Part shown: piece after piece, positions 18,593 to 40,459 of the stretch | How the letters are laid out: each line of letters starts with the position of its first letter | How positions within the stretch are numbered: the stretch's first letter is position 1 | DNA from: a virus | Virus record (IMG/VR): IMGVR_UViG_3300033273_000658 | Location: 64,001 to 128,000 of that record | DNA length: 64,000 nt | Strand: one strand, 5' to 3' | Notes under the pieces: model-generated | What the model saw: the letters and a program-made list of their open reading frames with translations, nothing else | What the model was told of the DNA's origin: nothing | Databases searched by the model: none | Made by a program: the position numbers and the translations under genes

Positions 18593-18962
18593 AAGTTACA
18601 TAAAATTTTAACAAACTTCATAAAACATGTCAAACTTTTTATGTAACTTTCTTAAAATTGTCTCTTGCAAGAATCATGCCAAAAATGTTTTACATAACTC
18701 AGACACTGAAATCGTGGCTGCAACTACCTTTAAGGTTGTTTTTGGATCATTGCAAGAACCATGCCAAACTTTTTTTACATAACTTTGAACCATTTTAAGC
18801 AAGTTACATAAAATTTTAACAAACTTCATAAAATGACTTGCAAGAATCGTGCCAATTTTTATTTACATAACTCAGGCATCGAAAACAGCTCTACGAGCTT
18901 CCAAAGGCCAGATCGCTTAACTTTACTATGAAGTTACATAAAATTTTAACAAACTTCATAAA
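18593..18962. repeat. Three exact 32-bp direct repeats AAGTTACATAAAATTTTAACAAACTTCATAAA
   Basis: Copies at 18593, 18801 and 18931; partial inverted and tandem copies nearby. Confidence 0.9.
18665..18872 (-). promoter_or_regulatory. Island A: three sigma54 -24/-12 consensus sites with linked AGTTATGTAA motif
   Basis: Reverse complement of TGGCAY-N5-TTGCAA at 18665, 18750 and 18838. Confidence 0.8.
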
Positions 18963-19057
18963 CTTTAACAAACTTCATAAAAAAAGTGAAGAAAAAGTTT
19001 GACAAGGTTATTTTGCTGGGTTAATGAATATTCTGCAACACAAAACATGGAGACAAC

Positions 19058-19216
19058 ATGAAAGTTGGTGACTTGGTAAAGAATAAATACAACAACAAAG
19101 TTGGGATAATAATCTCACATAGTGGACGGCCACACCGTATACTTGGTGTAATGTACAGTGTGTGGATAGATGGACTTGATGTGCTATTACACGAATCAGA
19201 CTTGGAGGTATTATGA
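19058..19216 (+). CDS. MKxGDLV micro-protein (not in ORF track)
   Basis: MKVGDLVKN...DLEVL*; GGAG RBS after promoter TTGACA at 18999. Confidence 0.7.
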   Translation: MKVGDLVKNKYNNKVGIIISHSGRPHRILGVMYSVWIDGLDVLLHESDLEVL

Positions 19217-19368
19217 TAGGTAGACTTGTGCGTTGCAAATATACAAATGAAATAGGAATAGTGTTGCGTAGGGAAATAACACGCAGAGGAAACTTTCGCT
19301 ACCATGTGTTTATTGGTGGCCATACAGAAAGTTTTCTTCCACATTTCTTGGAGGTGATAGATGAATAA
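19213..19368 (+). CDS. MKxGDLV-family micro-protein
   Basis: MIGRLVRC...FLEVIDE*; ATGA overlap. Confidence 0.7.
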   Translation: MIGRLVRCKYTNEIGIVLRREITRRGNFRYHVFIGGHTESFLPHFLEVIDE

Positions 19369-19531
19369 AGGTGACTTGGTACGGATAAGACATAACGAAC
19401 ATCAAGGGCTATTCATCCTCATGGAAAAATGTTCGGCTGGTAGCCAGTTCGTGAGACTATATTCTTTGAAATACAACCGCGTATGTTTTGATATGATACG
19501 CTCATTAGAGGTGATAAATGCAGAAAGGTGA
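19361..19531 (+). CDS. MKxGDLV-family micro-protein
   Basis: MNKGDLVRI...SLEVINAER*. Confidence 0.7.
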   Translation: MNKGDLVRIRHNEHQGLFILMEKCSAGSQFVRLYSLKYNRVCFDMIRSLEVINAER

Positions 19532-19667
19532 TTTAGTTAGATGTATATACACTGATGAACTATTGGTCATAACTTCGGAAGAAGTTGACGGCTATTTTGA
19601 TGTGTATGCAGTTGGAAATGGAAACATGTGGCTTATGCCCAAAGAACATTTAGAGGTGATAAAATGA
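19518..19667 (+). CDS. MKxGDLV-family micro-protein
   Basis: MQKGDLVRC...HLEVIK*. Confidence 0.7.
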   Translation: MQKGDLVRCIYTDELLVITSEEVDGYFDVYAVGNGNMWLMPKEHLEVIK

Positions 19668-19849
19668 AAGTAGGTGATTTAAGAGTATTTAAGCCTTGTA
19701 GTTTCTATGCAAACAACATGTTTGTTGTCACACAAGTAGACGATATGGACTGCTCAATAACAATAAGAATAATAAAGACAGGAGAAGTGGAATGTTGGGA
19801 TCGAATAATACTTCTTCACGACAGTAAATCCGTATCGGTCAAAAAATAA
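19664..19849 (+). CDS. MKxGDLV-family micro-protein
   Basis: MKVGDLRVF; start after GAGGTGAT. Confidence 0.7.
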   Translation: MKVGDLRVFKPCSFYANNMFVVTQVDDMDCSITIRIIKTGEVECWDRIILLHDSKSVSVKK

Positions 19850-19858
19850 ACTTTTTTC

Positions 19859-19887
19859 TTGACAAAATAATTGCAACACATTAAGCT
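19859..19887 (+). promoter_or_regulatory. Early promoter cassette (representative; relatives at 21166, 23598, 25071, 26320, 27771, 28465, 28841)
   Basis: T-tract-C-TTGACA-17-TAAG(G/C)T (TATTAT at 28841), A/C-rich leader, GGAG RBS. Confidence 0.8.
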
Positions 19888-19916
19888 ATAATTGCCAATC
19901 AAAACATGGAGACAAA

Positions 19917-20660
19917 ATGAACATAGAAAAAACAAAAGAGATTCTGCTAGGAAGAATAAACAAACTGACAGAAGAAGAAAGAGAGTGGATGTACGAAAAC
20001 AATAGAGCATGGTATAACAAATACCTTTTTGATAGTCCGTACCAAAAAGAAGAATACTCCAACTTACAATGGGAAGCTATGTGGCTATGGTCATCCTTTG
20101 GCCAAGACTACCTTCGCAATAAGTCTTTGGCAAAGAAATTTCTATCTTCGGAGAAGAAGATGAATCAAGTCATGGATATGATGCAAGACCGCAAGAAGTG
20201 GTATAATACTCGTGTCGATGAAATAAAGCAGCTACATGCGACTGGTAAGCTCACACAAGAGATTATGGCTTTCTTCATAAGCATGTTTCGCAAAGAAAAC
20301 TTCAATGTCTTTGAGAGCTATGTTAAAGACCCAATCTTTGACACTGGTGCAATTGTGCAGTTTCGCTCCAACATTGGTGTAGACGCAGTTCTTCAAGAAC
20401 ATAAGTATAGTGGTGGCACACAGTATTACGGAGCGAATCATAGTACAATGCGAGAACTTAAGCAAAAGACCATGATGGTGCTGGGTGAAAGTCCACCGTT
20501 GGGCGGCAAGATTTATGCTAGTGCCTATTCTCATAAAGAGAAACAAGGTGGTTCACGCTTGTATCGTGTTCTTCCTATCGGAGACACAAAAGTGTATATT
20601 GTTGTGGAGAAGTTCCTTAAGAAGTGTAGAACAAAGGCAGTGAAAGATGCAAAGAAGTGA
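19917..20660 (+). CDS. Hypothetical protein with C-terminal SH3-like segment
   Basis: First gene after cassette; FDTGAIVQF..YRVL..EKFLK. Confidence 0.65.
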   Translation: MNIEKTKEILLGRINKLTEEEREWMYENNRAWYNKYLFDSPYQKEEYSNLQWEAMWLWSSFGQDYLRNKSLAKKFLSSEKKMNQVMDMMQDRKKWYNTRVDEIKQLHATGKLTQEIMAFFISMFRKENFNVFESYVKDPIFDTGAIVQFRSNIGVDAVLQEHKYSGGTQYYGANHSTMRELKQKTMMVLGESPPLGGKIYASAYSHKEKQGGSRLYRVLPIGDTKVYIVVEKFLKKCRTKAVKDAKK

Positions 20661-20841
20661 TTTCAAGAAAGGCGATCTGTTCAGATACAATAAAGGTATG
20701 TCTATCCATGATGACGTTCATGGGCTTATAGGCATTGTGCTTGCTCCAATCAATCAGTTTGGACAATACAAAGTGCAAGTAGCGCACAAAACATTGTGGG
20801 TTCCTTTTTGTTCCTTGGAGGTGTTAGATGAAGAAAGGTGA
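20647..20841 (+). CDS. MKxGDLV-family micro-protein
   Basis: FKKGDLFRY..GIV..SLEVL. Confidence 0.7.
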   Translation: MQRSDFKKGDLFRYNKGMSIHDDVHGLIGIVLAPINQFGQYKVQVAHKTLWVPFCSLEVLDEER

Positions 20842-20992
20842 TGTGGTAATACCAGTCAGTAAAGATTTAGATAAGACACCTATGATCTACATGGGAATAG
20901 GTTTGTGGACTGGGTGGATACGCGTGTATTGTCCAGCAGATGGACAGATAATACAGGTTAGAAAAACATTCGTACAAAAGGTGGAAGTATGA
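20828..20992 (+). CDS. MKxGDLV-family micro-protein
   Basis: MKKGDVVI...QKVEV*. Confidence 0.65.
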   Translation: MKKGDVVIPVSKDLDKTPMIYMGIGLWTGWIRVYCPADGQIIQVRKTFVQKVEV

Positions 20993-21156
20993 AAGTAGGT
21001 GATCTGGTACAGATGAAAGACACACGCTACCACAAAGAGATAGGTGTGGTCATAAAAACTTTTTTCCATGGCGATTGGCGAATAGAGGTTCATTGGGCTG
21101 ATGGTCGTGTGTTGTGGGAATCAAAGCTGGACTTAATACCTGTTGAAAAAACTTAG
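20989..21156 (+). CDS. MKxGDLV-family micro-protein
   Basis: MKVGDLVQM..IGVV..VHWADG. Confidence 0.7.
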   Translation: MKVGDLVQMKDTRYHKEIGVVIKTFFHGDWRIEVHWADGRVLWESKLDLIPVEKT

Positions 21157-21224
21157 AATTTTTTCTTGACAAGATTTGCTCAATCAGATAAGGTATAAAT
21201 ATAACATCAAAACATGGAGGCAAC

Positions 21225-21578
21225 ATGGCTTACATCAAACCAAAAATGAATGTGTTCTTCGCCAATGGTGGCAAGGCAATAACGGCAGTCATAGACAAGA
21301 TTGCATTTCGCAAGTACATGACAAAACCATACAAAGATCCAAAGACAGGTGAAACCAAACGTAGACAGAAGTCTATGCCGTTCGCAGTGTGTCGTGTGAT
21401 TCTATCTCTTGATCCATCGGTGAATGTGAATGAGACATTCCTTATCGCTGGTTATCAGCTTGAAAATGTAGTTATCAAGAATGAGAAGATGCTCACATTC
21501 AAAAGCGACTACGTTGCAGAGTATGCAAAAGACTATGGTAACGAATGGGTTAGGAGAATAATCAATGAAGATAGGTGA
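21225..21578 (+). CDS. Hypothetical protein
   Basis: First gene after cassette 21166. Confidence 0.65.
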   Translation: MAYIKPKMNVFFANGGKAITAVIDKIAFRKYMTKPYKDPKTGETKRRQKSMPFAVCRVILSLDPSVNVNETFLIAGYQLENVVIKNEKMLTFKSDYVAEYAKDYGNEWVRRIINEDR

Positions 21579-21741
21579 TTTAGTAAAATGTATAGAAACA
21601 GACTACGGAATAGGTATAATCACAATGAAAAGACCTTTTGGTGGTTTTATAGTGTGTTTTCCAAACTCAAAGTTAAAACATAGCGACAAGTGTATTGGTT
21701 TATCAAGAGGAAACTTGGAGGTGATCAATGAAAAAAGGTAG
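21565..21741 (+). CDS. MKxGDLV-family micro-protein
   Basis: MKIGDLVKC..GIGII..NLEVINEKR*. Confidence 0.7.
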   Translation: MKIGDLVKCIETDYGIGIITMKRPFGGFIVCFPNSKLKHSDKCIGLSRGNLEVINEKR

Positions 21742-23589: not shown

Positions 23590-23655
23590 CTTTTTTCTTG
23601 ACAAAATAATTCCAATCCTATAAGGTATAAACATAACATCAAAACAGGAGACGAC

Positions 23656-24576: not shown

Positions 24577-24590
24577 CAAAGGAGACAACC

Positions 24591-27309: not shown

Positions 27310-27310
27310 C

Positions 27311-27744: not shown

Positions 27745-27830
27745 ACGGACAAAAAATTTCAACTTTTTTCTTGACAAAATAATTCCAATCCTATAAGCTA
27801 TAAACACTAACCCAAACAAACGGAGTGACC

Positions 27831-28334
27831 ATGAACGCACTAACCAAAAGACAAAACGAAGTCTACAACGACATAATAGATTTTATCATTCACAATCATA
27901 GATCCCCTAGTTATCGTGAGCTAGGTGATAGACTTGGAATTAAAAGCACAAATGGTGTCTTTGACCATGTAAAGGTTCTTAAACAGAAAGGCCTTTTAAG
28001 AAATGAAACAAAGATAACACCTGTTTCTATGCCTAAAAAACAAACAACTAGTGTTTCTCCGTCATGTATTGGGTTAAACAAGACTCAAAAACTACTATTA
28101 TTCACAAGATTATTGACAAAGATAGGTTCAATGCCAAAAGATGAAATCTTATCTAAGTATGGAATCTGCGAAAGAACTTGGAGACGTTGGAAAAAAGATA
28201 TGCATGGAGCCGGTATTGCTGTTTATACATGGCGATGTAAAAAAACAAAGACCTCCTTGGTGGGTACACCCCATGCCTATGTCCAAGCTATGATTGATGA
28301 AATGAATGAAAAATTAAACAAAAGGAGTAAATAA
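27831..28334 (+). CDS. LexA-like winged-HTH protein lacking the S24 peptidase domain; second HTH at C-terminus
   Basis: LTKRQ.EV...PSYRELG..LGIKSTNGV.DHVKVL..KG; no LexA-type V.AG cleavage site or Ser-Lys domain; EILSKYGICERTWRRW. Confidence 0.75.
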   Translation: MNALTKRQNEVYNDIIDFIIHNHRSPSYRELGDRLGIKSTNGVFDHVKVLKQKGLLRNETKITPVSMPKKQTTSVSPSCIGLNKTQKLLLFTRLLTKIGSMPKDEILSKYGICERTWRRWKKDMHGAGIAVYTWRCKKTKTSLVGTPHAYVQAMIDEMNEKLNKRSK

Positions 28335-28539
28335 TGATTCACCACAACGCATTTTATATGTTCCTCATAAATACAGGAATAGTGCTATTGTCAGCTTATT
28401 TCTTGGATAGATGGGCAACCTACACCCAAAGAAAGCCAATTTCCAAAAAAAATAAAAAAAATACTTGACAAAATAATTTCAACCCTATAAGGTATAAACA
28501 TCTTCACAACGAAGAACTTTCAACAACAACGGAGACAAC

Positions 28540-28821
28540 ATGTCATTTACCGACCAACAACTAAAACAACTAGGCACGTATGAGATACAAAATCTATCAG
28601 ATGAAGAACTCAAAGAACTTACTGTTTCACAATTGGAAATCATCAAAGATACTTTACAAGATGAACGAGACGAACTTGCAAACGAATACAATACTGGCGA
28701 CCCTCTTTGCTATCCCCCTGACTGGTATGATTACCACGTATATCCTCTTGATAGTGCAATCTCAAAGATCGAAGATCTCATGAAAGACGATGAAAATTCC
28801 GATGAAGATTCATGGTATTAA
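28540..28821 (+). CDS. Small acidic protein
   Basis: Sole gene between two promoter cassettes. Confidence 0.6.
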   Translation: MSFTDQQLKQLGTYEIQNLSDEELKELTVSQLEIIKDTLQDERDELANEYNTGDPLCYPPDWYDYHVYPLDSAISKIEDLMKDDENSDEDSWY

Positions 28822-28926
28822 AAAAACTTTAACTTTTTTCTTGACAAAGCTTTTCAACCTAATTATTATATAAACATCTTCACAGCGAAGAACTTTCAAC
28901 AACAACAAAACTAACGGAGGCCTCCC

Positions 28927-29988
28927 ATGGCTATTGACTTCAAAACATTCTCTAACGTAATCAACCCTATCCTTAACGCAAAGTTCCCTGTCCTCGTTCG
29001 TGGTCGGCACGGTATCGGTAAATCTACCATCGTTTACCAAAAAGCCAAAGAACTCGGTCTGCCTGTCGTAGAGCGTAGAGCATCCCAAATGACTGAGGGG
29101 GACTTGCTTGGCTTGCCAAAGCAATCAGACAATGATGTAACTGAGTGGTGTCCACCAAAGTGGTTCAAGACTGCTTGTGATACCCCTGTTGTCCTCTTCC
29201 TTGATGAAGTAGACCGTGCAACACTTGAAGTCCGTCAAGGTATCTTTGAACTATGCGATAGCCGTAAGATTGCCGGTCGCAGTCTTCATCCCGACACCCT
29301 TATCTTTGCTTGTGTCAATGGCGGAGAACATGGTTCTCAATACCAAGTAGGTGAGATGGATCCCGCAGAACTTGACCGCTACACTGTCTTTGACGTAGAA
29401 CCTACGGTAGAAGATTGGCTTAACTGGGCAAAGGGTAATGTTGCCCAAGAAATCTGGGATTTCATCAATCAGAACCACAATCATCTTGAACACAATGATG
29501 ACTACGAGCCTAACAAGGTTTACCCATCAAGACGTTCTTGGGAACGACTATCCACGACTTTGTCTGGAATGGGCGATCAGATTGAGGGTTCATCTGTAAC
29601 CTACCATATCGCTTGCTCTTTCATTGGCTTTGAGGGTGCAGTGGCATTCAAAGACTTCCTTGACAAATACGATCGTCAAGTCACCATCGAAGATCTTCTA
29701 GATGATGGTAAGTTTGACAAGATCAAAGGTTGGAAAATCAACGATCACAATGCCATGGTCGAAAAGATGAAAGCAAAGAACATCTTTGCAGACCGTCTAT
29801 CCGACACACGTCTTGATAACCTTGCAAAGTACTTCTTGCAACTTCCATCCGAGATTGTCATGGTTCTATGGCAGTCCATGGCTCAGACCGATGAGTCTAC
29901 CTACAACATCGCTAAACTTTGGGCAATCGAAGTGGATGGTACATCTATTCAAGACTATGTTGTCGGTATCCTCAACGCAGGAAACTAA
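28927..29988 (+). CDS. MoxR-like AAA+ ATPase
   Basis: Walker A GRHGIGKS, Walker B LFLDE, MDPAELDR, SRRSWE. Confidence 0.88.
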   Translation: MAIDFKTFSNVINPILNAKFPVLVRGRHGIGKSTIVYQKAKELGLPVVERRASQMTEGDLLGLPKQSDNDVTEWCPPKWFKTACDTPVVLFLDEVDRATLEVRQGIFELCDSRKIAGRSLHPDTLIFACVNGGEHGSQYQVGEMDPAELDRYTVFDVEPTVEDWLNWAKGNVAQEIWDFINQNHNHLEHNDDYEPNKVYPSRRSWERLSTTLSGMGDQIEGSSVTYHIACSFIGFEGAVAFKDFLDKYDRQVTIEDLLDDGKFDKIKGWKINDHNAMVEKMKAKNIFADRLSDTRLDNLAKYFLQLPSEIVMVLWQSMAQTDESTYNIAKLWAIEVDGTSIQDYVVGILNAGN

Positions 29989-30056
29989 GCCACAAAGGCT
30001 TTGGCTCCTTGTGCCTTGAAACAAGGAGACTATAATCCCTTTCTATGGAGATACCC

Positions 30057-30395
30057 ATGAGAATACACAAAGGTACATTCAAGATACGAGAACATGATGA
30101 TGGTGAACGAAAGTGGTCTTATTACGATGGATCGTATGGCAACGACTTCCCTTTCTATGTTCATCGTAAAGAGAACGAAAAGTGGTGGACTTTATCTCAC
30201 ATGTCTACTGGCTACATGATAAAGAAGAACCTATCACTGAAAGAGGCAAGGCGATTGTGCAAGGCTCTCAAAGAGTGGCCTTTGTTCCTAATGCCTACTG
30301 CTGAGACTTTGAACCATCAAAAGTCTTTACTACCAACCTACAAACAACAACTACTTAACAACATTGTACACAATGCAGGAGAAACCAATGAGTAA
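30057..30395 (+). CDS. Hypothetical protein
   Basis: WTLSHMSTG motif; GGAG RBS. Confidence 0.55.
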   Translation: MRIHKGTFKIREHDDGERKWSYYDGSYGNDFPFYVHRKENEKWWTLSHMSTGYMIKKNLSLKEARRLCKALKEWPLFLMPTAETLNHQKSLLPTYKQQLLNNIVHNAGETNE

Positions 30396-30594
30396 TAACG
30401 AGATCAACATTACACTGAACATATCAGACGAACTACTATCCAAGCTAATCATGGCTATGCAACCACAAAGCAACTCCATGGGAATACCCTTGCAAGCTCT
30501 CATGGGTATGGCTATGCCACCACAAGCACTTCCCAAGGCAGAAAAGCCCAAGAAGAAAGCACCTATGGGTTTCAAAACAGGGAGCGCAGAATGA
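30388..30594 (+). CDS. Hypothetical protein
   Basis: AGGAG RBS; C-terminal PMGF. Confidence 0.5.
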   Translation: MSNNEINITLNISDELLSKLIMAMQPQSNSMGIPLQALMGMAMPPQALPKAEKPKKKAPMGFKTGSAE

Positions 30595-30833
30595 GCAGAC
30601 CAAAATTGCAGTATAGCAACATAACGTACTACGCAATACAAAGGCAAAAGCTGGAGTTTCCACCAGAACTTGAAGAGTTATCTGAACCTTTGGAAGTCAA
30701 GTCATTGGCTCAAAAGATAGAGGAAGCGCACACAAACCTAGATAGAATAGAATTTTCAAAAAAAAACTTGACAATTCCTATCGAACAGAATAATAGTAAA
30801 TTATCACCCCAACAAGGAGATTCCAATGAGTGA
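30591..30833 (+). CDS. Hypothetical protein
   Basis: ATGA-coupled ORF. Confidence 0.45.
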   Translation: MSRPKLQYSNITYYAIQRQKLEFPPELEELSEPLEVKSLAQKIEEAHTNLDRIEFSKKNLTIPIEQNNSKLSPQQGDSNE

Positions 30834-32064
30834 TAACGAAACAACAGAAAAGTTTGACTTGAACATGCACACTTTCCGTTTGCTACAACAAGAACCGTTC
30901 TTCGCAAGTCTTTCAAGACGTATTCACAAAGCACCATCCAAGCACATTCCAACTGCTGGTGTCCGTATCAATCCACAGTCAGCACAGTTTGAGATGCTTT
31001 ACAATCCAGAGTTCATGGCAAGTCTTACAGACAAGCAAAAGCTTGGTGTTCTAATGCACGAGTTTTACCACATCATCTTTGAGCACGTCACCACACGACT
31101 TCCAGCAGAGGGTATGTCTATGAAGTGGAACGTTGCAACAGACCTTGCAATCAACAGTCACATCATGGACATGTTGCCGGAGGGTGGATGTATCCCATCA
31201 AAGGTTGGCACTCCGTTTGAGAACTATCCTGTCGGTCTATCTGCTGAGGCTTATCTAAAGATAATCGAAGAAGATGAGCAGTTCAAGAAAGACGATGGTC
31301 AAGGCCAAGGTGACGGTCAAGGTGGTCAAGGTGACGGAGATCCATCACAAGGGCAAGGCCAAGGTTCATCGCTGGGCGATCATGTTCTTGACGATCATAG
31401 TGGCTGGGGCGATGTAGATGAAGAGACAAAGGCTATGGCCAAAGAGCGTTTGAAAGACGCTATGGAGAAAGCCGCAAAGGATGCGTCAAGCGGTCAAGGC
31501 TGGGGTTCTGTATCGGCAGACGTTCGTAAGCAGATCATGGACGCTATCACACCGAAGATTGACTGGCGCAAGGTTCTTCGATACTTCATCAAGACCTCAC
31601 AGCGTAGCAACAAGCGATCAACCGTTCGCAGATTGAACCGTAGGTTCCCTTACATTCATGCTGGCCGAAAGGTTACACGTCAAGCCAAGATTGCTATCAG
31701 CATTGACCAATCGGGTTCTGTTTCAGACACCATGCTTGCCTCATTCTTCGCAGAACTCAATAGCCTATCAAGCCTTGCCGAGTTTACCGTTGTGCCTTTC
31801 GATACCGAAGTAGATGAGAGCCTTGTCTACACATGGAAGAAAGGTGAGCGCAAGACATGGGAGCGTGTCAAGTGTGGTGGCACATGCTTTGACGCTCCGA
31901 CACGATACGTCAATGAGAACGGTTTCGATGGTCACATCATCTTGACTGACATGGAGGCTCCAAAGCCGATAGCCAGCAAGTGCCAACGCATGTGGATGAC
32001 TGACCAACGAGGCAAGGAGAACCCTTACTTCACAACCAATGAACGTGTCATAGCGATAGACTAG
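30826..32064 (+). CDS. DUF2201-like zincin plus vWA protein (MoxR partner)
   Basis: HEFYH, WNVATDLAIN, Gly/Gln linker, DDHSGW, MIDAS IDQSGS, GGT, ILTD. Confidence 0.85.
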   Translation: MSDNETTEKFDLNMHTFRLLQQEPFFASLSRRIHKAPSKHIPTAGVRINPQSAQFEMLYNPEFMASLTDKQKLGVLMHEFYHIIFEHVTTRLPAEGMSMKWNVATDLAINSHIMDMLPEGGCIPSKVGTPFENYPVGLSAEAYLKIIEEDEQFKKDDGQGQGDGQGGQGDGDPSQGQGQGSSLGDHVLDDHSGWGDVDEETKAMAKERLKDAMEKAAKDASSGQGWGSVSADVRKQIMDAITPKIDWRKVLRYFIKTSQRSNKRSTVRRLNRRFPYIHAGRKVTRQAKIAISIDQSGSVSDTMLASFFAELNSLSSLAEFTVVPFDTEVDESLVYTWKKGERKTWERVKCGGTCFDAPTRYVNENGFDGHIILTDMEAPKPIASKCQRMWMTDQRGKENPYFTTNERVIAID

Positions 32065-32072
32065 GTGATAAC

Positions 32073-32819
32073 ATGATAGGGATGTTGTATAGAACGAAAC
32101 ACAGCAAACACATATATGCTTGCATAAGCATAGACTATGCACACATCCCCTACTTCACCATGGTCTGTATAACAGACGGAGACACATGGGTAGTCAAGGG
32201 ATTGAGAGAGCTAGATAGATACTTTGAACCCCTAACAACACCGGAGGAAGAATGATTGGTACACTATGGAGATTCAACGAAACCGGCAAGGTATACATTC
32301 TCAAAGAGAAGTATACCACAAGACAAGGGAATGAATACTGCGTATTCATACAGCCATGTGGCAACCATGTAACACTTCGTGACTACTTTATCAAGAAAAC
32401 TATGACTAAGATAACCTACTCTACCCCTACCAAGGAGAAACCATGATCGGTACACTATGGAAATGTCGAAAAGGCAAGGTTTACATTCTCAAAGACAAAT
32501 ACTATACAACAGGTGGGGCACTATACTATGTGTTCACGACACCCAGCCTAGGCCATGTGAGACTTCGTGATTTCTTTGTAGAGAGATCTATGACCAAGAT
32601 AGCCTAACCTACTACCCTACTACCCCACCCCCAACCAAAGGAGAAACTATGGTCGGAACACTATGGAAGAGCGAGAGTGGTATAGCAGTATGCACTGCAT
32701 GCAAAGATGGGTTCTACACACTGAGATACCTTGACGCTCCCGATTGCTTTGCTCACATAAGCGAGAGCAGTCTACACTTCTACTACACACAACTCACACA
32801 ACCACAGGAGGAAACATGA
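32073..32819 (+). CDS. Four tandem paralogous micro-genes M(I/V)GxL(W/Y): 32073-32255, 32252-32446, 32443-32607, 32649-32819
   Basis: MIGMLYR, MIGTLWR, MIGTLWK, MVGTLWK; copies 2 and 3 share GKVYILK.KY..LRD.F...MTKI. Confidence 0.65.
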
Positions 32820-32951
32820 GTAAACCTAAGCACACGATGGACAAAGTAACCATCACAACACGTACCAACACAGGAACACAAGTGCGTGTCCTGTCTCCAA
32901 AGGAGATCAAGCGCACAACCAAGTACAACACCTTTCACTACGGAGGCAAGG

Positions 32952-33200
32952 ATGGAGGATAAAACTGCAATCACTATCAAAGCAGTCAAAGAGGCTCTAG
33001 ACTTCATAGAGAATCTATGGGGCAATTGGGATGGAGATCTTCATGACTTCGTTGCGAACGTCATAAGTGAAGATACTGTTACACAGTATGACGTGCAACA
33101 CCTTTTGGATGCTCTCTCCAAAGGAGAGCATGTGGATGGGATTGAGACTCTCTATGTCAATAAACGAGGTTCAAAGTACCAAATCAAAATCAAACGGTGA
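32952..33200 (+). CDS. Hypothetical protein
   Basis: ATG after GGAGG. Confidence 0.5.
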   Translation: MEDKTAITIKAVKEALDFIENLWGNWDGDLHDFVANVISEDTVTQYDVQHLLDALSKGEHVDGIETLYVNKRGSKYQIKIKR

Positions 33201-33241
33201 ATGAGGTAATGTAAGGGGCAGTTTCAGAGTAGAGGCACCTC

Positions 33242-33277
33242 TTGCAATTTCCATGCCAAAAAAATTTTACGTAACTC
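33242..33277 (-). promoter_or_regulatory. Island B: one sigma54 composite site
   Basis: Reverse complement GAGTTACGTAA-N8-TGGCATGGAAATTGCAA. Confidence 0.75.
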
Positions 33278-33390
33278 AGACCAGCTCACAACCATCCCCT
33301 AAGGGGATGAAAAAAACTTTCACTTTTTTCTTGACAACCTTTTCTGAACCCTATAAGAGTATTGTACCAACCCAAACCGATGGAAACAAA

Positions 33391-33615
33391 ATGAACAAGA
33401 TCATTTACTTCTACACAATCTACTGGAAATCATTTCCAACTCAGTACAGACCATCCGAGATAGAATCACTGAGTATAGCTTATTCCGAGAACAACGTACC
33501 AAAGGATAGATTCGATCATCATGATGCTGTTTTGGATTATCTTATAGATACCAATCCAAACCCCTTTGAGTCAGTGCCAGAATTTATCATCATCAAGACC
33601 ACAACAGAACAATAG
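33391..33615 (+). CDS. Hypothetical protein
   Basis: ATG at end of cassette. Confidence 0.6.
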   Translation: MNKIIYFYTIYWKSFPTQYRPSEIESLSIAYSENNVPKDRFDHHDAVLDYLIDTNPNPFESVPEFIIIKTTTEQ

Positions 33616-33623
33616 GAGACACC

Positions 33624-33848
33624 ATGAAGTTCCAACCAACAATCCTTATAGACAACGACCTCTACATCAAGATCGAAAAAGGGGAAGTAAAACTTCAATG
33701 TGGCCAATGGATACAACTTGAATGGTGTGATAAACCATCACGATGGGTTGGACTTACCAAAGCCAGAACTTTATGGGCAGTTCACTATCCAGTCAAGATG
33801 AACCAGTTCAAAACATTGTGCAAGAACATAAACCGATTCCAATCATAA
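33624..33848 (+). CDS. Hypothetical protein
   Basis: AGGAG RBS; LQCGQWI..SRWVG. Confidence 0.6.
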   Translation: MKFQPTILIDNDLYIKIEKGEVKLQCGQWIQLEWCDKPSRWVGLTKARTLWAVHYPVKMNQFKTLCKNINRFQS

Positions 33849-34016
33849 TAGGAGACAACCATGAACAAAACTGAAATGTATAGACAACAACTTCGTCAAC
33901 TTCGTAGCAACTTCTATGCTAAAGACAAGCCCACTTTTCAAGAAATGATGGAGTTTGCACAAGAAGAAATCTACCTTGTAAAGAAGATGAACGGAAAGTT
34001 TTAATAGGAGACAACC

Positions 34017-34199
34017 ATGAACAACAAAATGCCTTTATCCTCCATCTTTGATGGGAAAGACCACGAAACCTTTGTATCCATCAATCTTGCCTTGCAAGCT
34101 CTAAACATGGACGGAGTACCATCTGAATTACGAGAGATTACCGAACAAGCTCTTGTGGAATTGCTAAAAGCCAGTTTTGACATGAACAATTGCAACTGA
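34017..34199 (+). CDS. Hypothetical protein
   Basis: AGGAGACAACCATG start. Confidence 0.55.
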   Translation: MNNKMPLSSIFDGKDHETFVSINLALQALNMDGVPSELREITEQALVELLKASFDMNNCN

Positions 34200-34282
34200 G
34201 AAATTTATTTTCAACTTTTTTCTTGACAACCTTTTCTGAACCCTATAAGAGTATTATACCAACCCAAACCGATGGAGACATC

Positions 34283-34537
34283 ATGTCAAAAATGATACAA
34301 CTTGAACCACCCTTTGATAAAGAAATGCCTACCTTTGATGCAATCATGATTGCCGAGGGTGTTGTGCAAGCCGAGAGCAGAGAACAATACATCCAAGCAT
34401 GGCAAGTACTCATCGACACTGGCATGGCCTATCAGCTACAAGGATGGTTCCATAGAACGGCAGATGCTCTTATAGAGAACGGTCACTGCACACCACGAAA
34501 GACACAACAAGCCAACAACCAAACATACTCATGCTAA
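34283..34537 (+). CDS. Hypothetical phage early-type protein
   Basis: WQVLIDTGMAYQLQGWFHRTA motif; cassette start. Confidence 0.6.
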   Translation: MSKMIQLEPPFDKEMPTFDAIMIAEGVVQAESREQYIQAWQVLIDTGMAYQLQGWFHRTADALIENGHCTPRKTQQANNQTYSC

Positions 34538-34901
34538 TAATGGAGAACATCATGATTTATTTCGTAGACTACACATACAACACAACAGGCGCAAACTTTG
34601 GAGCGCAGTACGGTTTCATGCGAATCAAAGCAACATCCAAAGCAGACGCAATCACCAAAGCTAAAAAGCAAGCCCCACGCAACGCAAAAGGCTTCAAGGC
34701 TACACCTGTATAACGGAGACACACATGAATGAAACAGAAGTATTCCTTGCACTCCTTTTCTTATGGGCAACCTTTCTTCTCTTCTCATTGGGCATTGTAC
34801 CTACATAATCAAAGCCTTATAAAAAAATTCAACTTTTTTTCTTGACAACCTTTTCTGAACCCCTTATATAATAAACACCAACCCAAACTGATGGAGACAA
34901 C

Positions 34902-35285
34902 ATGTCACTCATTCTACAACAAAACAAACAAGAAATCAAAGACTTCTGCCTTGACCGACTTCGTGAGCTATCAATCTACATGGGCAATCAAGACTTCCGA
35001 GATGCTTATGTTTCTGACCTGCATGACGACATCTTTAACCGAGACTATTACATCATTGGTCACTACCAAGCTAAACAATGGATGGGGGATTCTGCTTTCG
35101 ATATGATCGGAGACGTTGTAGAGTATGAGCGAGACAACTTCGGAGAAGTCCATACAGACCTTTCTTCTCCCGAAAGCGTTGTGAACATGTGGGTTTATGT
35201 GGAGGGATGGAACATCATTCATAAGTGTTATGAAGCTGTTGTGATGGAGTTGGGTGATGAGCAATGCCAATTGGATGTGACATAA
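34902..35285 (+). CDS. Acidic protein, possible Ocr-like DNA mimic
   Basis: D/E-rich and helical; DLHDDIFN.DYYIIG. Confidence 0.4.
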   Translation: MSLILQQNKQEIKDFCLDRLRELSIYMGNQDFRDAYVSDLHDDIFNRDYYIIGHYQAKQWMGDSAFDMIGDVVEYERDNFGEVHTDLSSPESVVNMWVYVEGWNIIHKCYEAVVMELGDEQCQLDVT

Positions 35286-35361
35286 AATCTCATCTTTTTT
35301 CTTGACAAAGTAAACCGAACCCTATAAGAGTATTATACCAACCCAAACCGATGGAGACATC

Positions 35362-35649
35362 ATGAACAACTATCTTGACCTTGCACTACAAGCCTACCGT
35401 AACGGAACCATGGACACCCGATACGAATACTTCGCAGAAGTAGCTACCCTTGCGAAATTGTATAAAGACTTGCATACGCTTTACTTTGAGATTGATGAAC
35501 TGCAAGAAGAGAAGAATCCCGATGGTTCCTATGTGGACAACACCGAAGAGCTGGAGCGCATGAGACAAGCGTATCGCAACACCCAAGAAATGCTCCATGC
35601 CTATGAAGAATACGCAATCCCCCTCATCTGCAAGCAGGTGTTGAAATGA
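35362..35649 (+). CDS. Hypothetical protein
   Basis: Cassette start. Confidence 0.6.
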   Translation: MNNYLDLALQAYRNGTMDTRYEYFAEVATLAKLYKDLHTLYFEIDELQEEKNPDGSYVDNTEELERMRQAYRNTQEMLHAYEEYAIPLICKQVLK

Positions 35650-35792
35650 GCGACAAAGACTTGAACGCCCTTGCAATAATGATCCTTGTCCTTGCCCTAC
35701 CTTTTATCCTATGCTAACATTCATCATCATCCAACTAACCGTATCAATCACCTACTCATACTTGACCATCTACCTGAACAATCGGAGACCAC

Positions 35793-35981
35793 ATGAAAAA
35801 TAAATCTTTTAATACTCTTGAATCTGCCTATAAGTACTACGATGTTGTATCTCAGAACTATGTAGCTTTCCTTATACTCAATAGAGAAGAAGACAAGTAC
35901 GAAGTAATCAATCAAGACTTGTATGACCACTACGCTTTTGAGTTTGATCTTGACATGGTTATCATGGACTTTGTCTGCTAG
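35793..35981 (+). CDS. Hypothetical acidic protein
   Basis: GGAG RBS. Confidence 0.55.
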   Translation: MKNKSFNTLESAYKYYDVVSQNYVAFLILNREEDKYEVINQDLYDHYAFEFDLDMVIMDFVC

Positions 35982-36045
35982 GCTACTCCCCTCTACCGTA
36001 CTACCCCCCTACCCTACCCCCCTACCTAACCGACCGGAGATTTAC

Positions 36046-36288
36046 ATGAACACTCAATCCACCCTCACACAAATTATCGATAGAACCCTTGCACTCATTG
36101 ACAACGGACTTGAACGCTCCGTAGGAGACATGCGCCTTATGGACGCTCTTGAGCTTGTGGGTGTCCTCATGGACATACGTGAACGTCAGCTCGTATACGA
36201 TAATGAGCGCAGTGTTTCCGAGCCTATTCCATCATGCAGAAAGGCATGTATGAAAAAGCCCAAATGCAAAGGTACAGATGGGCTATAA
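36046..36288 (+). CDS. Hypothetical protein
   Basis: ATG after GGAG, downstream of a C-rich tract. Confidence 0.5.
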   Translation: MNTQSTLTQIIDRTLALIDNGLERSVGDMRLMDALELVGVLMDIRERQLVYDNERSVSEPIPSCRKACMKKPKCKGTDGL

Positions 36289-36492
36289 AACGGAGGAAAT
36301 AAACTTTATGAAAGTATTGTTTTGTGGCGTGTTATGGATGTATTGAAATTTTCCTTTATTGTCGGGAGTATCTGAGCTAAAACAGCTCCTAAGCACACCA
36401 CCCACTACTAAGTAGTACCCCCAAAACTAAAACGCCTTTTTTCCCCGAAACTTTTGAAATAGGGGAATCTTTTTTTTGCCCAAAATCTAATT

Positions 36493-36665
36493 GAAAATGA
36501 GAATCATTATCAAAATGCGCCTTGCAATTTCCGTGCCAAAACTTCTTTACATAACTCCGAGCCGATTGTCCTTGCAATTTCCGTGCCAAAACTTCTTTAC
36601 ATAACTCCGAGATCACCCGAAAATACCCCTTGCAAAAAGCGTGCCAAAAAAATTTCACATAACTC
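36493..36665 (-). promoter_or_regulatory. Island C: Fur box plus three sigma54 composite sites (42-bp exact direct repeat, period 50)
   Basis: GAAAATGAGAATCATTATC at 36493; sigma54 sites at 36522, 36572, 36630. Confidence 0.8.
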
Positions 36666-36816
36666 AAAACAGCTTTCCAGATAGCTGGGATTAAGGTGGC
36701 TCCCGTAGGGAGATAAAAAAAATGAAAAAAAAGTTTGACACCAGAAACACCATCGGATAGAAGTAAGTATCGGCTTTTTTCGATGGTCGAATTTTCACAT
36801 CCCTTTCGGAGCTATC

Positions 36817-37116
36817 ATGCCCTACTACGCTTTCTTCCACTGTTCCCACTGCAATTGCCTCCTCCCAGAACATGATCAATCCTTTGGATTCTACCGAGAC
36901 GATAACGACAAAGCAGTTTGTTTACGTTGCTTCAGCTCTCTTGATGGAGAACTACCTGTCGATGTACAACAAGCATTTGAGGCTATCATAGAGCGTATGG
37001 ATGAGTATCACGAGACCTTTCGTGGAGCTATGGTTCATGTGTCCTATGAGTATGGTACAAATGAGACGCACCACCAACAGCTTTGGGCTATGTACCGAGA
37101 TCTATACAAGTCCTAA
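36817..37116 (+). CDS. Zn-finger hypothetical protein
   Basis: CSHC...CLRC; promoter TTGACA at 36735. Confidence 0.55.
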   Translation: MPYYAFFHCSHCNCLLPEHDQSFGFYRDDNDKAVCLRCFSSLDGELPVDVQQAFEAIIERMDEYHETFRGAMVHVSYEYGTNETHHQQLWAMYRDLYKS

Positions 37117-37463
37117 AAACCGGCCTTTGAAGGCCCTTCCTTTAACATCCAACCCCTAGCGAGATAAACTCATGATGTACAATAATCACTTCAATCCGTT
37201 CCCCTATCTAATCATTGCAATCTATACCTCCCTAATCTTCATTGGCCTTGCAGGGTTCTATCAGAACATAGCACACCCAAAACCCTTGCCAAAGGTAGAG
37301 ATTCCCCACAATGAAGTCGAAATCACATTTATTTCAAAATAATTCTTGACACCACCAAAATAACCCAGTATACTGTATAGAGACGATAACGATTGAGATA
37401 ATGAGTTTCAAGACTGCTGAATCGATCCGAAGTCTCTCCAACCCCTCCCAAATAGGAAACCCC

Positions 37464-37808
37464 ATGCCACGTTACTTTTCTTGCTCTTGCCACCTCAACA
37501 CCGAAACCACTTGCCGACACGATAGAGATCCTTTCAATGCTCTCCGTATGAGAACCGACTGGACTGTAGCTGACTTCGATGGTCTCAGCTCAAAAGAAGT
37601 CCAAGCTATCAATGAGTCCAATGCACGATACAACCAGCTTGCAGAAGAGATTGAGGAGATGAACATCTCCATAGCTATGCGCCAGATGGACGATGGAACC
37701 TACAACAAAAAACCACGTAGAACCAAGCGTATCAAACGCGTCTCTCTCTCAGAAGAACAACAAGCCGAGATTATCGCAGATCTCAAAGAGGACGGCTACG
37801 AAGTGTAG
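37464..37808 (+). CDS. Hypothetical protein
   Basis: Promoter TTGACA-17-TATACT at 37346; AGGA RBS. Confidence 0.55.
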   Translation: MPRYFSCSCHLNTETTCRHDRDPFNALRMRTDWTVADFDGLSSKEVQAINESNARYNQLAEEIEEMNISIAMRQMDDGTYNKKPRRTKRIKRVSLSEEQQAEIIADLKEDGYEV

Positions 37809-37873
37809 CCAACTCTTCTACCCTACTACATACCACCCTACTACCCTACTACCCCACCCCCAAGGACATACCC

Positions 37874-38263
37874 ATGAGCACATCTAACGCTAACAACGAG
37901 ACCACTATTAACCCCTCTTCTCTTCCAACTGCTGAATACCTCTATGCTCGCAACCCTGCTCTCCGAGACTCCAAAAACACCATCTCATACACGCAGTTCG
38001 ATAAAATCGTGCGCTCAATAGAGCCAAGCGCATACCAGCAATTACGCCTCATAGAGCTATGTGAGATGTACAACGCTCTCACACGTGAGCAACAGGTAGC
38101 ACAGGATGAGCCACACTTAAGCGCAGAAGATGACTTTGCAATCTTTACAGATCAAAACGGGTTTACTATCATTCAGCATGAACCAACCTTTATCAAGTTT
38201 AAGCTTATGGGCTATGAGAGTGTCGAAATGAAACGGCCGAGAAGACTCTCAATCATACTCTAA
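37874..38263 (+). CDS. Hypothetical protein
   Basis: AAGGA RBS after a C-rich tract. Confidence 0.55.
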   Translation: MSTSNANNETTINPSSLPTAEYLYARNPALRDSKNTISYTQFDKIVRSIEPSAYQQLRLIELCEMYNALTREQQVAQDEPHLSAEDDFAIFTDQNGFTIIQHEPTFIKFKLMGYESVEMKRPRRLSIIL

Positions 38264-38297
38264 GTTTTTGGAGTTTGCCAGAAGAACCATTTCATTT

Positions 38298-38498
38298 TGA
38301 GAATGGTTCTCATTTTTTTAGCTCGGTCATTTTGAGAATCATTCTCAATTTCAGTTTTTGGCATGAGCTTTGCAATATTGCAAGAAGTGTGCCAAACTTT
38401 TTTGACATAACTCAGACCGTTTTTCTCTTGCAAAAACCGTGCCAAAAAAAATTGTCATAACTCAAATGGCCTAGCTGGCCATTTGAGAATCATTCTCA
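38298..38498. promoter_or_regulatory. Island D: three Fur-type 7-1-7 boxes plus three sigma54 sites (two convergent)
   Basis: TGAGAATGGTTCTCA at 38298, TGAGAATCATTCTCA at 38333 and 38484; sigma54 + at 38359, - at 38378, - at 38428; 11-bp inverted repeat 38461-38487. Confidence 0.8.
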
Positions 38499-38668
38499 TT
38501 TAGAAAAAAATGAAAAAAAGTGAAAAAAAAGTTTGACATAGCAAAATGAGTCGGGTATTATAGAGTATGCCTTTTTTGAGGCTGTCGCTCTTTTACATCC
38601 CCAATAACAAATCTTCCTCTCCGTGGCTGTTCATGGAGAGAGACAAACTTCTTTATATGGAGCCAACC

Positions 38669-39094
38669 ATGGCAACAATCATTCTCAATTCTCTTAATCT
38701 CCTCACAAAAATCATCAATCAAGGTGCTTTTGCAACTGACGCTATCGCAGAAGTCCAGAACACCTATGGTCTTGATCAAGAGCAGGTCGATACCGTACTC
38801 ATGGAGTACAACATCAATCAGATGCGTTCCCAGCGTTCTCAGCTCACACTGACTGTCTGCTTAAAGAACGCATCCAGCGTAGAGATTCCTCTTACTCAGG
38901 CCCAGTTCGATCTGCTCATGGCGCAGTTCAATACTGGGGATGCAAAGGATCCCTATGGGAATCTCATTGTGAGAAGTGTAGAGATCACTGACAACAAGCG
39001 TATCCGTCAGCATGGTTATGCACCCGATGGAAACACAGGTTACAACTGGGGTTATGCATCCACAGGACGCTTGTCACATCCCAGTGATGAATAA
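38669..39094 (+). CDS. Hypothetical protein
   Basis: ATG after GGAG; promoter TTGACA-17-TATTAT at 38533. Confidence 0.55.
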   Translation: MATIILNSLNLLTKIINQGAFATDAIAEVQNTYGLDQEQVDTVLMEYNINQMRSQRSQLTLTVCLKNASSVEIPLTQAQFDLLMAQFNTGDAKDPYGNLIVRSVEITDNKRIRQHGYAPDGNTGYNWGYASTGRLSHPSDE

Positions 39095-39330
39095 ACATCC
39101 ACCCAATCACCCAAAACAGGGGGCGCAAGCCCCCAAGGAGCTTGTATGAGCCGTTTAATGAATCTTGCACACCTTGGAAATCCACTTGTAAAATGCACAA
39201 AATGTGGATTCCAATACCCCAAACTTGGAAAGTGGTCAATTGCCACCCATCAATGTACAGGAAAGAAAAAATGAGACTAGATCACTTCGTCATCAAACCA
39301 CCCACAACCAACCTTTATAGAGGAGCCACC

Positions 39331-39708
39331 ATGGCCATTTCAAACACACCCAAAACCAACACCCAAACCATCACAACAGGAGCCACCATGGCACACTATC
39401 CACAAAACACCCCATCTGTAACCCAGTCACGAGGCTTTGAGTCGTCACACATGACTTGGGTTCGCACACAACAAACTGGATCGGATCTTGTATACGGTCG
39501 TATTCGTGACACCGGAGCCAACTACATTGTAGAGGGTTATCGATCTGGTGTATGGGTTGCGATCCCTTGCAAGAATCTCCCAAGTGCACAGCTTCTTCTT
39601 GGTGGTGTCATGCCAAAGGCAACACACAAACGAGAAAAGGCGCACTATGACTTTCAGAAAGCCCATGTAGAGCTATACGCATGGTGGAAAGACCACAGCA
39701 TTGTATAA
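39331..39708 (+). CDS. Hypothetical protein with two in-frame AGGAGCCACCATG starts (39331, 39388)
   Basis: Duplicated initiation region. Confidence 0.5.
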   Translation: MAISNTPKTNTQTITTGATMAHYPQNTPSVTQSRGFESSHMTWVRTQQTGSDLVYGRIRDTGANYIVEGYRSGVWVAIPCKNLPSAQLLLGGVMPKATHKREKAHYDFQKAHVELYAWWKDHSIV

Positions 39709-39783
39709 CTCTTCCAGTGCTCTAGCCGTGGCATAAAACGGCCTACTACCCCACCCCCGTACCCCCACAAACAGGAGACATCC

Positions 39784-40143
39784 ATGTCACACGAGACACC
39801 CGAAACCAACCCCACAACCCCACAAAACACTACCACCAAGAAAGTTCTTTACATTGCTCATTTATGCCCATACGACATGGCTCAGTATGGATATGGAACC
39901 ACACATCGCTTTTCAGATCGGGAGGAGTTTGAGGCTTTCCGAGCCTCCAAAGGCTCTCGTTGTGATGACTACAGTCGTTGGATCTACCATGTGCGCACCA
40001 TCTTTAATCGAATCGAAGAAGGATACGATGTAGACTCGTGGTATTTCGACTATGGTGTCAATAATGACGGTTCAGTTTCAAAAACCCCATACGGACATTG
40101 GAACCAGTACCATGCAGATTTCAAGAGCTTTCCCGAAATCTAG
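39784..40143 (+). CDS. Hypothetical protein
   Basis: AGGAG RBS after a C-rich tract. Confidence 0.55.
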   Translation: MSHETPETNPTTPQNTTTKKVLYIAHLCPYDMAQYGYGTTHRFSDREEFEAFRASKGSRCDDYSRWIYHVRTIFNRIEEGYDVDSWYFDYGVNNDGSVSKTPYGHWNQYHADFKSFPEI

Positions 40144-40170
40144 TCACGTCAAGTCTTGACGTAACAACAT

Positions 40171-40197
40171 GAGCCGAAATTTTCGGCTCTTTTTTTT
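40171..40197 (+). terminator. Rho-independent terminator
   Basis: GAGCCGAAA/TTTCGGCTC hairpin then T8. Confidence 0.75.
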
Positions 40198-40211
40198 GAG
40201 CTTGATCATTT

Positions 40212-40459
40212 TGAGAATCATTCTCAATTTCTGTTTTAACAAATTTCATAAAATTTTATGCAAGTTAGATAAAAATCCTCTTGCAATAACCGTGCCAAAC
40301 TTTCTTTACGTAACTCCAAAAATCTTGCATGCAAGAAGTGTGCCAAAAAAACTTTACGTAACTCAAACCGGATAGCTGAAAATCCTCTTGCAAGAAGTGT
40401 GCCAAACTTTCTTTACGTAACTCAAAACACATAGCTGAGCATTTTTGAAAATCTTCTCA
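40212..40459 (-). promoter_or_regulatory. Island E: Fur box plus three sigma54 composite sites
   Basis: TGAGAATCATTCTCA at 40212; sigma54 sites at 40281, 40329, 40388, each with TTACGTAACT. Confidence 0.8.

Follow-up and report, generated by a model that had tools for sequence, protein, structure and literature searches.

The stretch of DNA analyzed here (the window) comprises 64,000 nucleotides, bases 64001 to 128000 of a single 141,005-bp IMG/VR virus record (IMGVR_UViG_3300033273_000658) with an estimated completeness of 78%. The virus is an uncultured marine myovirus, with terminase, portal, major head, and sheath genes, as well as genes for a DnaE-type polymerase, DnaB, ribonucleotide reductase, GroEL, and a transfer-messenger RNA (tmRNA). 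The plus strand carries 61 of the 62 long open reading frames (ORFs) and every ORF with a positive coding score between 17 and 43 kb; independent gene calls for related contigs give the same strand picture. On the minus strand lies the element considered here, a composite unit in which an 11-bp box, AGTTAYGTAAA, is followed by seven variable A/T-rich bases and then by the -24/-12 consensus of sigma-54 (RpoN) promoters. The units occupy five intergenic islands, at 18.6 to 19.0, 33.25, 36.5, 38.4, and 40.3 kb, and since the genes are all on the plus strand, they point against every gene, in an antisense and divergent arrangement. The plus-strand ORFs between the islands are real genes, with protein homologues that are 30 to 97% identical in one relative. 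A blastn search of 6 kb against cultured phages gave no match, and the nearest cultured relatives of the AAA ATPase, from the Vibrio phage Va1 group, are just 31% identical, so no host could be assigned.

The pattern TGCCA-N8-TNWCRTAACT has exactly 12 matches in the window, every one on the plus strand; shuffled controls gave a mean of 0.01 matches and never reached 12. An initial annotation of this DNA had listed 12 minus-strand sites, with boxes starting (13 nt after the start of each TGCCA) at 18690, 18775, 18863, 33267, 36547, 36597, 36655, 38403, 38453, 40306, 40354, and 40413, and the agreement is exact. Read on the minus strand, all 12 units have the form AGTTAYGTAA(A)-N7/8-TGGCA(C/T)-N5-TTGCA, and the GG and GC doublets that define a sigma-54 promoter are found 10 bp apart, within YTGGCACG-N4-TTGCW, in 12 of 12. 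Numbering with the GG at -25/-24 places the 10-mer box at -44 to -35 and the 11-bp box at -44 to -34, much as first proposed, and the three box variants named at that time, TCACATAACT, TGACATAACT, and TGTCATAACT, are present; the isolated box is AGTTATGTAAA. These units are the sole composite sites in the entire record.

Island 1 contains unit 1 (18666..18699, with the sigma-54 core at 18666-18681 and the box AGTTATGTAA at 18690-18699), unit 2 (18751..18784), and unit 3 (18839..18872), all, like the units that follow, on the minus strand. Island 2 has a single unit, unit 4 (33243..33276), which is convergent with the gene for an 82-amino-acid (82-aa) winged-helix protein and lies 43 bp past its stop codon. 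Units 5 (36523..36556), 6 (36573..36606), and 7 (36631..36664; box variant AGTTATGTGA) form island 3, units 8 (38379..38412; box variant AGTTATGTCA) and 9 (38429..38462; box variant AGTTATGACA) form island 4, and units 10 (40282..40315), 11 (40330..40363), and 12 (40389..40422) form island 5. Each island is bounded on the right by a strong sigma-70 promoter that reads rightward, conforms to aaaaatgaaaaaaaagTTTGACA-N17-TAnnnT, and is preceded by an A-tract; the units are thus back-to-back with early promoters. On the plus strand, these are located at 18999..19027 (an early promoter with its upstream A-tract, divergent from island 1), 33331..33359 (divergent from unit 4), 36735..36763 and 38533..38561 (each with an A-tract, divergent from islands 3 and 4, respectively), and 40505..40532, where TTTGCA-N16-TATATT, a sigma-70-like promoter read directly, has an A-tract and diverges from island 5.

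Two sigma-54-like cores without a box are found in the record. One, on the minus strand at genome position 1532-1547, within an SbcC-like gene outside the window, is probably a chance match. The other (38359..38374, plus) is on the gene strand and faces unit 8 across a shared palindrome, TTGCAATATTGCAA; in this face-to-face pair (the minus-strand core is at 38379-38394), the zone upstream of the plus-strand core has a Fur-like palindrome instead of the box. To either side of the sigma-54 arrays are palindromes (TTGAGAATCATTCTCAA) of the 7-1-7/8-1-8 type that resemble Fur boxes, at 36499-36511, 38299-38311, 38334-38346, 38485-38497, 40213-40225, and 41954-41966. A different palindrome, GGACA-N4-7-TGTCC, has 128 copies in 49 of 80 related contigs and none in the present genome; in the contigs inspected it occupies the same positions as the Fur-like palindromes, and the two look like exchangeable operator specificities.

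Conservation of the units in related phages

Related viral loci were gathered through the MoxR-like ATPase of the window, not through the motif. Minus-strand sigma-54 cores were found in only the two closest of the 72 loci, with 10 cores (98% ATPase identity) and 7 cores (73% identity); the box lies exactly 8 nt away in 16 of the 17. Three complete relatives, at 63 to 68% identity, contain zero sigma-54 cores in about 185 kb. A scan of viral contigs gave 15 composite stretches in about 11 contigs, and the composite is present in at least 120 marine metagenome contigs, many of which have 2 to 5 tandem units; the counts that follow rest on 80 of them. Here 209 cores are on one strand and 2 on the other, and long ORFs run opposite to the strand of the units in 70 of the 80 contigs. 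Of the 183 distinct cores, 170 are preceded, exactly 8 nt away, by a box that departs from AGTTAYGTAA at two positions or fewer; spacings of 4 to 12 nt were covered, and no core has the box at a different one. About 47 of the conserved sites differ from the search pattern, which therefore did not select them.

Taken over 179 distinct sites, the profile reads tttnAGTTATGTAAAnaatttTTGGCAcGgTTcTTGCAAgg. Each position of the box is conserved in 83 to 95% of sites; the spacer varies in sequence, yet is 80 to 98% A/T. A constant distance between box and core in 170 distinct sites, over a spacer of variable sequence, would be difficult to account for unless both halves are read together. The metagenome profile has no conservation beyond -8 or upstream of -48, and conservation that stops at -8, with none in the would-be transcript, is promoter-like. 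Between about -48 and -8 conservation is unbroken, which gives a composite of about 37 to 41 bp and bears out the functional unit of some 36 bp proposed in the initial annotation. In homologous islands, where loss of the box or of the 8-bp spacing had been named as an observation that would count against the idea, both are retained, and the idea survives. A doubt that integration host factor (IHF) acts at the box was also justified: the IHF consensus WATCAANNNNTTR occurs within -86 to -25, on either strand, in just 1 of 187 sites, which excludes IHF at this position. The remark that AGCT often follows the box holds as a loose enrichment only: within 25 nt beyond the box the tetramer is found in 22 of 92 first units and in 32 of all 203, where the background is 6%, and its distance is not fixed. 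Taken as a whole, the earlier interpretation is partly supported: the composite unit is borne out, while a protein in contact with the holoenzyme, which might lock, repress, or activate it, is a prediction.

In a scan of bacteria and archaea, with one genome for each of 185,579 species, seven single composite hits were obtained, in unrelated metagenome-assembled genomes. By our own estimate this is about the number expected by chance, so that the composite is not a feature of host chromosomes and, judged from these sequences, appears to be phage specific. A comparison of spacing in related phages and in host sigma-54 promoters had been suggested; the phages keep the 8 nt, but host promoters will not show the composite, which is not carried by bacterial chromosomes.

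Unit-to-unit spacings peak at 48 to 51, 57, 69, and 84 to 89 bp, with a minimum of 39 bp. The number of units per island ranges from 1 to 5 across relatives, as might be seen if the units were selfish or neutral tandem repeats that spread by duplication and have no function. We consider this very improbable: the spacer and the bases from -21 to -16 diverge freely while at least 25 specified positions and the spacing stay fixed, the constraint holds across contigs whose flanking proteins are only 43 to 50% identical, and position and orientation are syntenic. Some islands among the metagenome loci (L099 to L178) also contain short direct arrays of cTTGACa, resembling -35 elements, on the sigma-54 strand; L113, for example, has three in succession.

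The sigma-54 core, the box, and candidate binding proteins

Beyond the two doublets, the core has preferred bases at secondary positions: T at -27 (98%), G at -20 (76%), T at -18 and -17 (78% and 85%), and A at -11 (92%). Such bases favor tight closed-complex formation, and by its sequence the core appears to be a near-ideal sigma-54 site. In a sister clade, a single box-less core on the plus strand, TGGCAC-N5-TTGCAATATATA, immediately precedes a 319-aa ORF that has Pfam Sigma70_r2 and Sigma70_r4 domains, a phage sigma-70-family factor (L032, 19296-20283, plus; also L028 and L034). A core placed ahead of a regulatory gene seems hard to read except as functional, and would set up a cascade from host sigma-54 to a phage sigma factor; on this evidence the hosts of this phage family very probably possess sigma-54. 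The existence of a conserved class of sigma-54 cores without the box, seen in the island 3 region of relatives, also means that box and core are separable, yet they are tightly coupled in one promoter class.

It is nevertheless conceivable that the units are not sigma-54 sites, and that the likeness to the -24/-12 elements is convergent. They could form a bipartite site for a phage protein, in the manner of origin iterons primed by leftward transcription, or a promoter for an unrecognized phage sigma factor or polymerase. Island 1 is A/T-rich, has eight box copies on both strands, and lies beside replication genes, and a partial dyad formed by the box and the -24 element, TGTAAA-N6-TTGGCA, occurs in 131 of 187 sites; in addition, in a record that is 78% complete a phage factor could lie in the missing part. 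Despite these points we regard such an explanation as improbable. All of the positions relevant to sigma-54 carry the preferred base, including secondary ones that another protein need not copy; the sister-clade phages put the same core, without the box, before a real gene; neither the Sigma54_DBD and Sigma54_CBD domains nor a sigma-70-family factor was detected in the 141-kb record; and five dispersed islands would be unusual for an origin. The partial dyad is also a 10-of-12 in-register match to the TyrR/PhhR box. That box is TGTAAA-N6-TTTACA with G-N14-C. The equally conserved 5' AGTTA of the phage box falls outside the dyad, and the resemblance is a lead only. A sigma-70 promoter on the plus strand of the units, with TTGCAA as its -35 element, was rejected by inspection, as no acceptable -10 element is found at any spacing, and an RNA-level reading of the plus strand was rejected since there is no consistent hairpin.

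The box also occurs outside the units. A CA-centered form, AGTTACATAA, is found without a sigma-54 core; its own core, TTACATAA, when reverse complemented gives the TTATGTAA present at sigma-54 units. In island 1, within 18594..18648, a leftward consensus sigma-70 promoter, TTGACA-N17-TAAAAT (18605-18633, minus), is bracketed by AGTTACATAA upstream (18639-18648) and by an inverted copy at its start site (18594-18603). Further copies are AGTTATGTAA at 18573..18582 (minus), which overlaps the stop codon of the gene 18386-18580 and has no sigma-54 core, and, on the gene strand, AGTTACATAA followed by AATTTTAACAAACTTCATAAA at 18802..18811 and a third copy at 18932-18941. At least 10 other contigs share the arrangement seen in island 1, with the CA form 5 bp upstream of a leftward TTGACA-N17-TATAAT and an inverted copy over the start. 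In several contigs a CA-form box on the gene strand takes the place of a -35 element, 17 bp before TATAAT. The same box at several promoters, with inverted copies around one of them, is thus present in the window and in at least 10 contigs; it looks like a classic operator layout, at which binding is predicted. Given the CA form on either side of a leftward sigma-70 promoter, the family of boxes extends beyond sigma-54, whereas the TG/CG-centered form is nearly exclusive to sigma-54 units (155 composite versus 10 noncomposite copies).

A protein that might act at the box was sought among the ORFs common to three unit-bearing viral records and missing from the complete relatives that lack units. 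One of these ORFs is found in no other of the 72 loci; it encodes an acidic winged-helix protein of 82 aa (32952..33200, plus), a clade marker, and is followed by the convergent unit 4. Within the viral collection, its occurrence is confined to the two relatives with units that the ATPase search had yielded; public metagenomes contain 239 clusters of its family, none of which has a name or a Pfam domain. Eight contigs were then picked through this protein alone (51 to 82% identical; two are near-duplicates), and 8 of 8 have a composite unit 40 to 83 bp past the stop codon, on the opposite strand and with an 8-nt distance to the box; that distance is kept by 16 of the 18 cores listed for these contigs. 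The gene was not found in five further unit-bearing viral contigs, which are fragments only 4 to 29% complete, so that this absence carries no weight. An AlphaFold2 model (pLDDT 90) has the helix-strand-helix-helix-hairpin order of a winged helix, and the best structural matches listed are all winged-helix domains, with middling scores (Foldseek E values of 0.05 to 0.4, Z scores of 5 to 7); they include both DNA-binding proteins (BlaI, SSV1 F-112, MarR/ArsR, and Fur/Zur) and protein-binding ones (ESCRT-II and MCM). Winged-helix proteins that bind DNA do so through helix 3 and the wing. The 82-aa protein is acidic overall with a basic wing. It is a candidate for the factor at the box and, judging from the model, could be a reader of the box, a binder of polymerase, or merely the target of the convergent antisense promoter. 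Following its gene (33205-33245 and homologues) is a hairpin with covarying stems, AAGGGG/CCCCTT, AAGAGG/CCTCTT, and GGTGGG/CCCACC, and a loop of 19 nt, CAGTTTCAGAGTAGAGACA, whose sequence is conserved; in most contigs the hairpin's 3' arm shares bases with the -12 region of the convergent unit.

Other candidates were set aside. A protein of 169 aa with a LexA-type DNA-binding domain (27825-28334) has no homologue in any of the 72 related loci; as a box binder it was rejected on finding it absent even from the 98%-identical relative. The clade-specific ORFs 21225-21578, 30045-30395, 30364-30594, and 34902-35285, and the early ORFs at 34 to 43 kb, belong to no DNA-binding family in Pfam or PHROGs and gave no lead in the protein atlas. 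The MoxR-like ATPase (28927-29988) was considered as a hidden activator, being the sole, weak activator hit; it is of the MoxR/CbbQ/midasin type, pairs with a von Willebrand factor A (VWA) protein, and was rejected because all 72 relatives have it, those lacking units included. The pair of a MoxR-type AAA+ ATPase and a DUF2201 metallopeptidase/VWA protein (28927-32064) is itself kept in more than 70 related viral contigs. The window also contains a full-length tmRNA gene (1498-1883; 101.9 bits with Rfam), with the tag peptide ANNNNYFEVAQAA.

Proposed leftward transcription from the units

An intrinsic terminator, a hairpin followed by a T-run, is positioned at 36252..36284 (minus) to end leftward transcripts from island 3, and is embedded in the last codons of the plus-strand gene 35923-36288. 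In an alignment of the island 3 region from 19 distinct homologues, the sole consensus RNA structure is this hairpin with an invariant T-run, on the sigma-54 strand, with compensatory changes in 5 of 9 pairs; on the gene strand the same DNA reads as an A-run and then a hairpin, which is no terminator. Of the 19 homologues, 12 have a box-less core, gcgtttttGGCATGGATTTTGCA, some 105 to 120 nt upstream of the terminator; this core is lost in the window and retained in the 98%-identical relative. The leftward RNA from island 3, putatively of 268 nt, is not unusually structured (z score of -1.04); in antisense orientation it would span the start codon and ribosome-binding site of a very small, nonconserved ORF on the plus strand. 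The start region itself, GGAGG-N9/10-TTTATGA, located after the gene 35923-36288 (36290-36345 and homologues), is strongly conserved; the ORF behind it has 5 to 16 codons, is not conserved, and would be covered by the leftward RNA. With a covarying leftward terminator, and with consensus sigma-70 promoters in the same orientation as the units, leftward transcription appears to be the most economical reading of these sequences. From 28000 to 42000 the G+C content is 0.41 to 0.45, compared to 0.32 to 0.40 elsewhere, and the GC skew is negative despite the plus-strand genes; this block coincides with the span that putative leftward transcription from islands 2 to 5 would cross.

The reading we favor, at an even chance, is that the units are host sigma-54 promoters for antisense or noncoding RNAs, gated by a factor at the box. 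The TTGGCAC-N5-TTGCAA half would dock the sigma-54 holoenzyme facing leftward, back-to-back with the rightward sigma-70 early promoter, and the AGTTAYGTAAA half, with its A/T-rich 7-bp spacer, would adjoin the closed complex at its upstream edge. The box would be read by a sequence-specific factor, most probably encoded by the phage, that gates the unit; the ATPase activator would be a host enhancer-binding protein that acts without a conserved upstream site. When fired, the units would give noncoding leftward RNAs, antisense over the 3' ends of the upstream early operons, and in one island type these RNAs would end at the dedicated terminator. The predicted outcome is a sigma-70-independent damping or timing of early and regulatory genes, among them the winged-helix gene beside unit 4.

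Several results weigh against this reading. Profile PF00158, for the enhancer-binding ATPase, has no match above the cutoff in the genome or in five relatives, a GAFTGA-like loop is absent from all six frames, and the unit profile has no conserved activator site upstream of -48. Leftward terminators are not in excess across clusters (17 of 58 leftward, compared to 13 of 58), the one described above being found at one island type only, and neither an ORF nor a conserved RNA was found downstream of the units. No public RNA runs containing the phage sequence are listed, and the presence of sigma-54 in the host is something that we infer. Finally, units are packed as closely as 39 to 51 bp, which suits several parked closed complexes better than several firing promoters.

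This last point leads to a possible, if on balance unlikely, alternative: sigma-54 holoenzyme binds the units and never opens, with the box factor stiffening arrays of closed complexes. The arrays might then serve as architecture that tunes the divergent sigma-70 early promoter or insulates it from the preceding operon, or as a sink that depletes the small sigma-54 pool of the host while phage DNA is multiplied. A packing of 39 to 51 bp is compatible only with closed complexes held simultaneously, neither an activator nor a site for one was found, and selection appears to favor the tightest-binding core. A strict divergent sigma-70 promoter was found within 260 bp upstream of 35 of 81 clusters, compared to 0 of 71 in the downstream control, and the distances from unit to divergent -35 element bunch at 53, 63 to 65, 75 to 77, and 87 bp, in steps of about one helical turn, as would suit such an architecture, although the steps may reflect shared ancestry of the island types. 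On the other hand, orientation should not matter to a sink, whereas 209 of 211 cores share one direction; consensus sigma-70 promoters that run along with the units and a terminator for the leftward strand only argue for an RNA; and in the 12 homologues with a box-less core, it is this sigma-54 core that would drive the terminator-bounded unit.

A bolder version of the promoter reading, to which we attach only a small likelihood, is an appropriation of sigma-54: a small phage protein would sit at the box against the upstream face of the closed complex, where it would replace the enhancer-binding ATPase or license whichever such host protein is active, and the antisense RNAs would shut the early operons. 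The best candidate for this part is the 82-aa winged-helix protein, found in unit-bearing phages only and convergent to a unit. If it is true, the phage has private control over an otherwise locked polymerase.

Relation to known systems

Sigma-54 promoters consist of two short elements and a distant enhancer, and their occurrence in phages was already known. In the classical examples (glnAp2, nifH, Pu, and pspA), which drive genes, activators bind around -80 to -150, and IHF often occupies the DNA in between. The phage units resemble them in the GG-N10-GC core, in the extended TGGCAC-N5-TTGCA, and in the A/T-rich DNA just upstream of -24; unlike them, the units have no conserved distal site or IHF consensus, an 11-bp box fixed at -44 to -34, and a viral setting of tandem arrays antisense to all genes. 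The small RNAs Qrr1 to Qrr5 (activated by LuxO) and GlmY/GlmZ (activated by GlrR, from overlapping sigma-70 and sigma-54 promoters) are driven by sigma-54. They share with the putative phage RNA a short, terminator-bounded, noncoding product and the use of sigma-70 and sigma-54 promoters for the same RNA; they are chromosomal, with defined activator sites, and act in trans via Hfq, whereas the phage RNA would be cis-antisense, with no activator site evident. At the middle promoters of phage T4, MotA binds its box in a process known as sigma appropriation. Common to both systems is a box peculiar to the phage, set at a constant distance from an element for a host sigma factor, through which a phage factor reprograms the holoenzyme, the box reader being a prediction in the present case; T4 targets sigma-70 and replaces its -35 element, while the units concern sigma-54, for which no counterpart of MotA-type appropriation has been described to our knowledge.

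A published precedent for phage dependence on sigma-54 is Pseudomonas phage YuA, which according to the available excerpt of PMC10914365 depends on sigma-70 as well as sigma-54 (Ceyssens et al. 2008, cited therein). YuA likewise is a virulent phage that relies on these two host factors with no obvious activator of its own; it is reported to have a single gene-strand sigma-54-like promoter, and that excerpt does not describe a phased motif, a tandem array, or an antisense orientation. The excerpts of two studies of Escherichia coli and Salmonella (PMC4591121 and PMC3844500) report intragenic and antisense sigma-54 sites as inactive closed complexes. These are similar in being holoenzyme sites in nonproductive or antisense positions, but they are scattered singly inside genes, whereas the phage units are intergenic, arrayed, strictly oriented, and joined to a box.

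In the literature searched we found no description of a strictly phased third element in the proximal part of a sigma-54 promoter. What is new here is this box, its wide conservation, its sharing with a class of sigma-70 promoters, and its linkage to an uncharacterized winged-helix gene. The element is kept in about 170 distinct sites of widespread ocean phages, in a geometry that cannot express any gene. It may represent a new sigma-54 switch that works without a conventional enhancer, or else parked polymerase used as a building block of early control; either outcome would be a new mode of viral takeover of the host polymerase, and would offer a compact orthogonal control part for synthetic biology.

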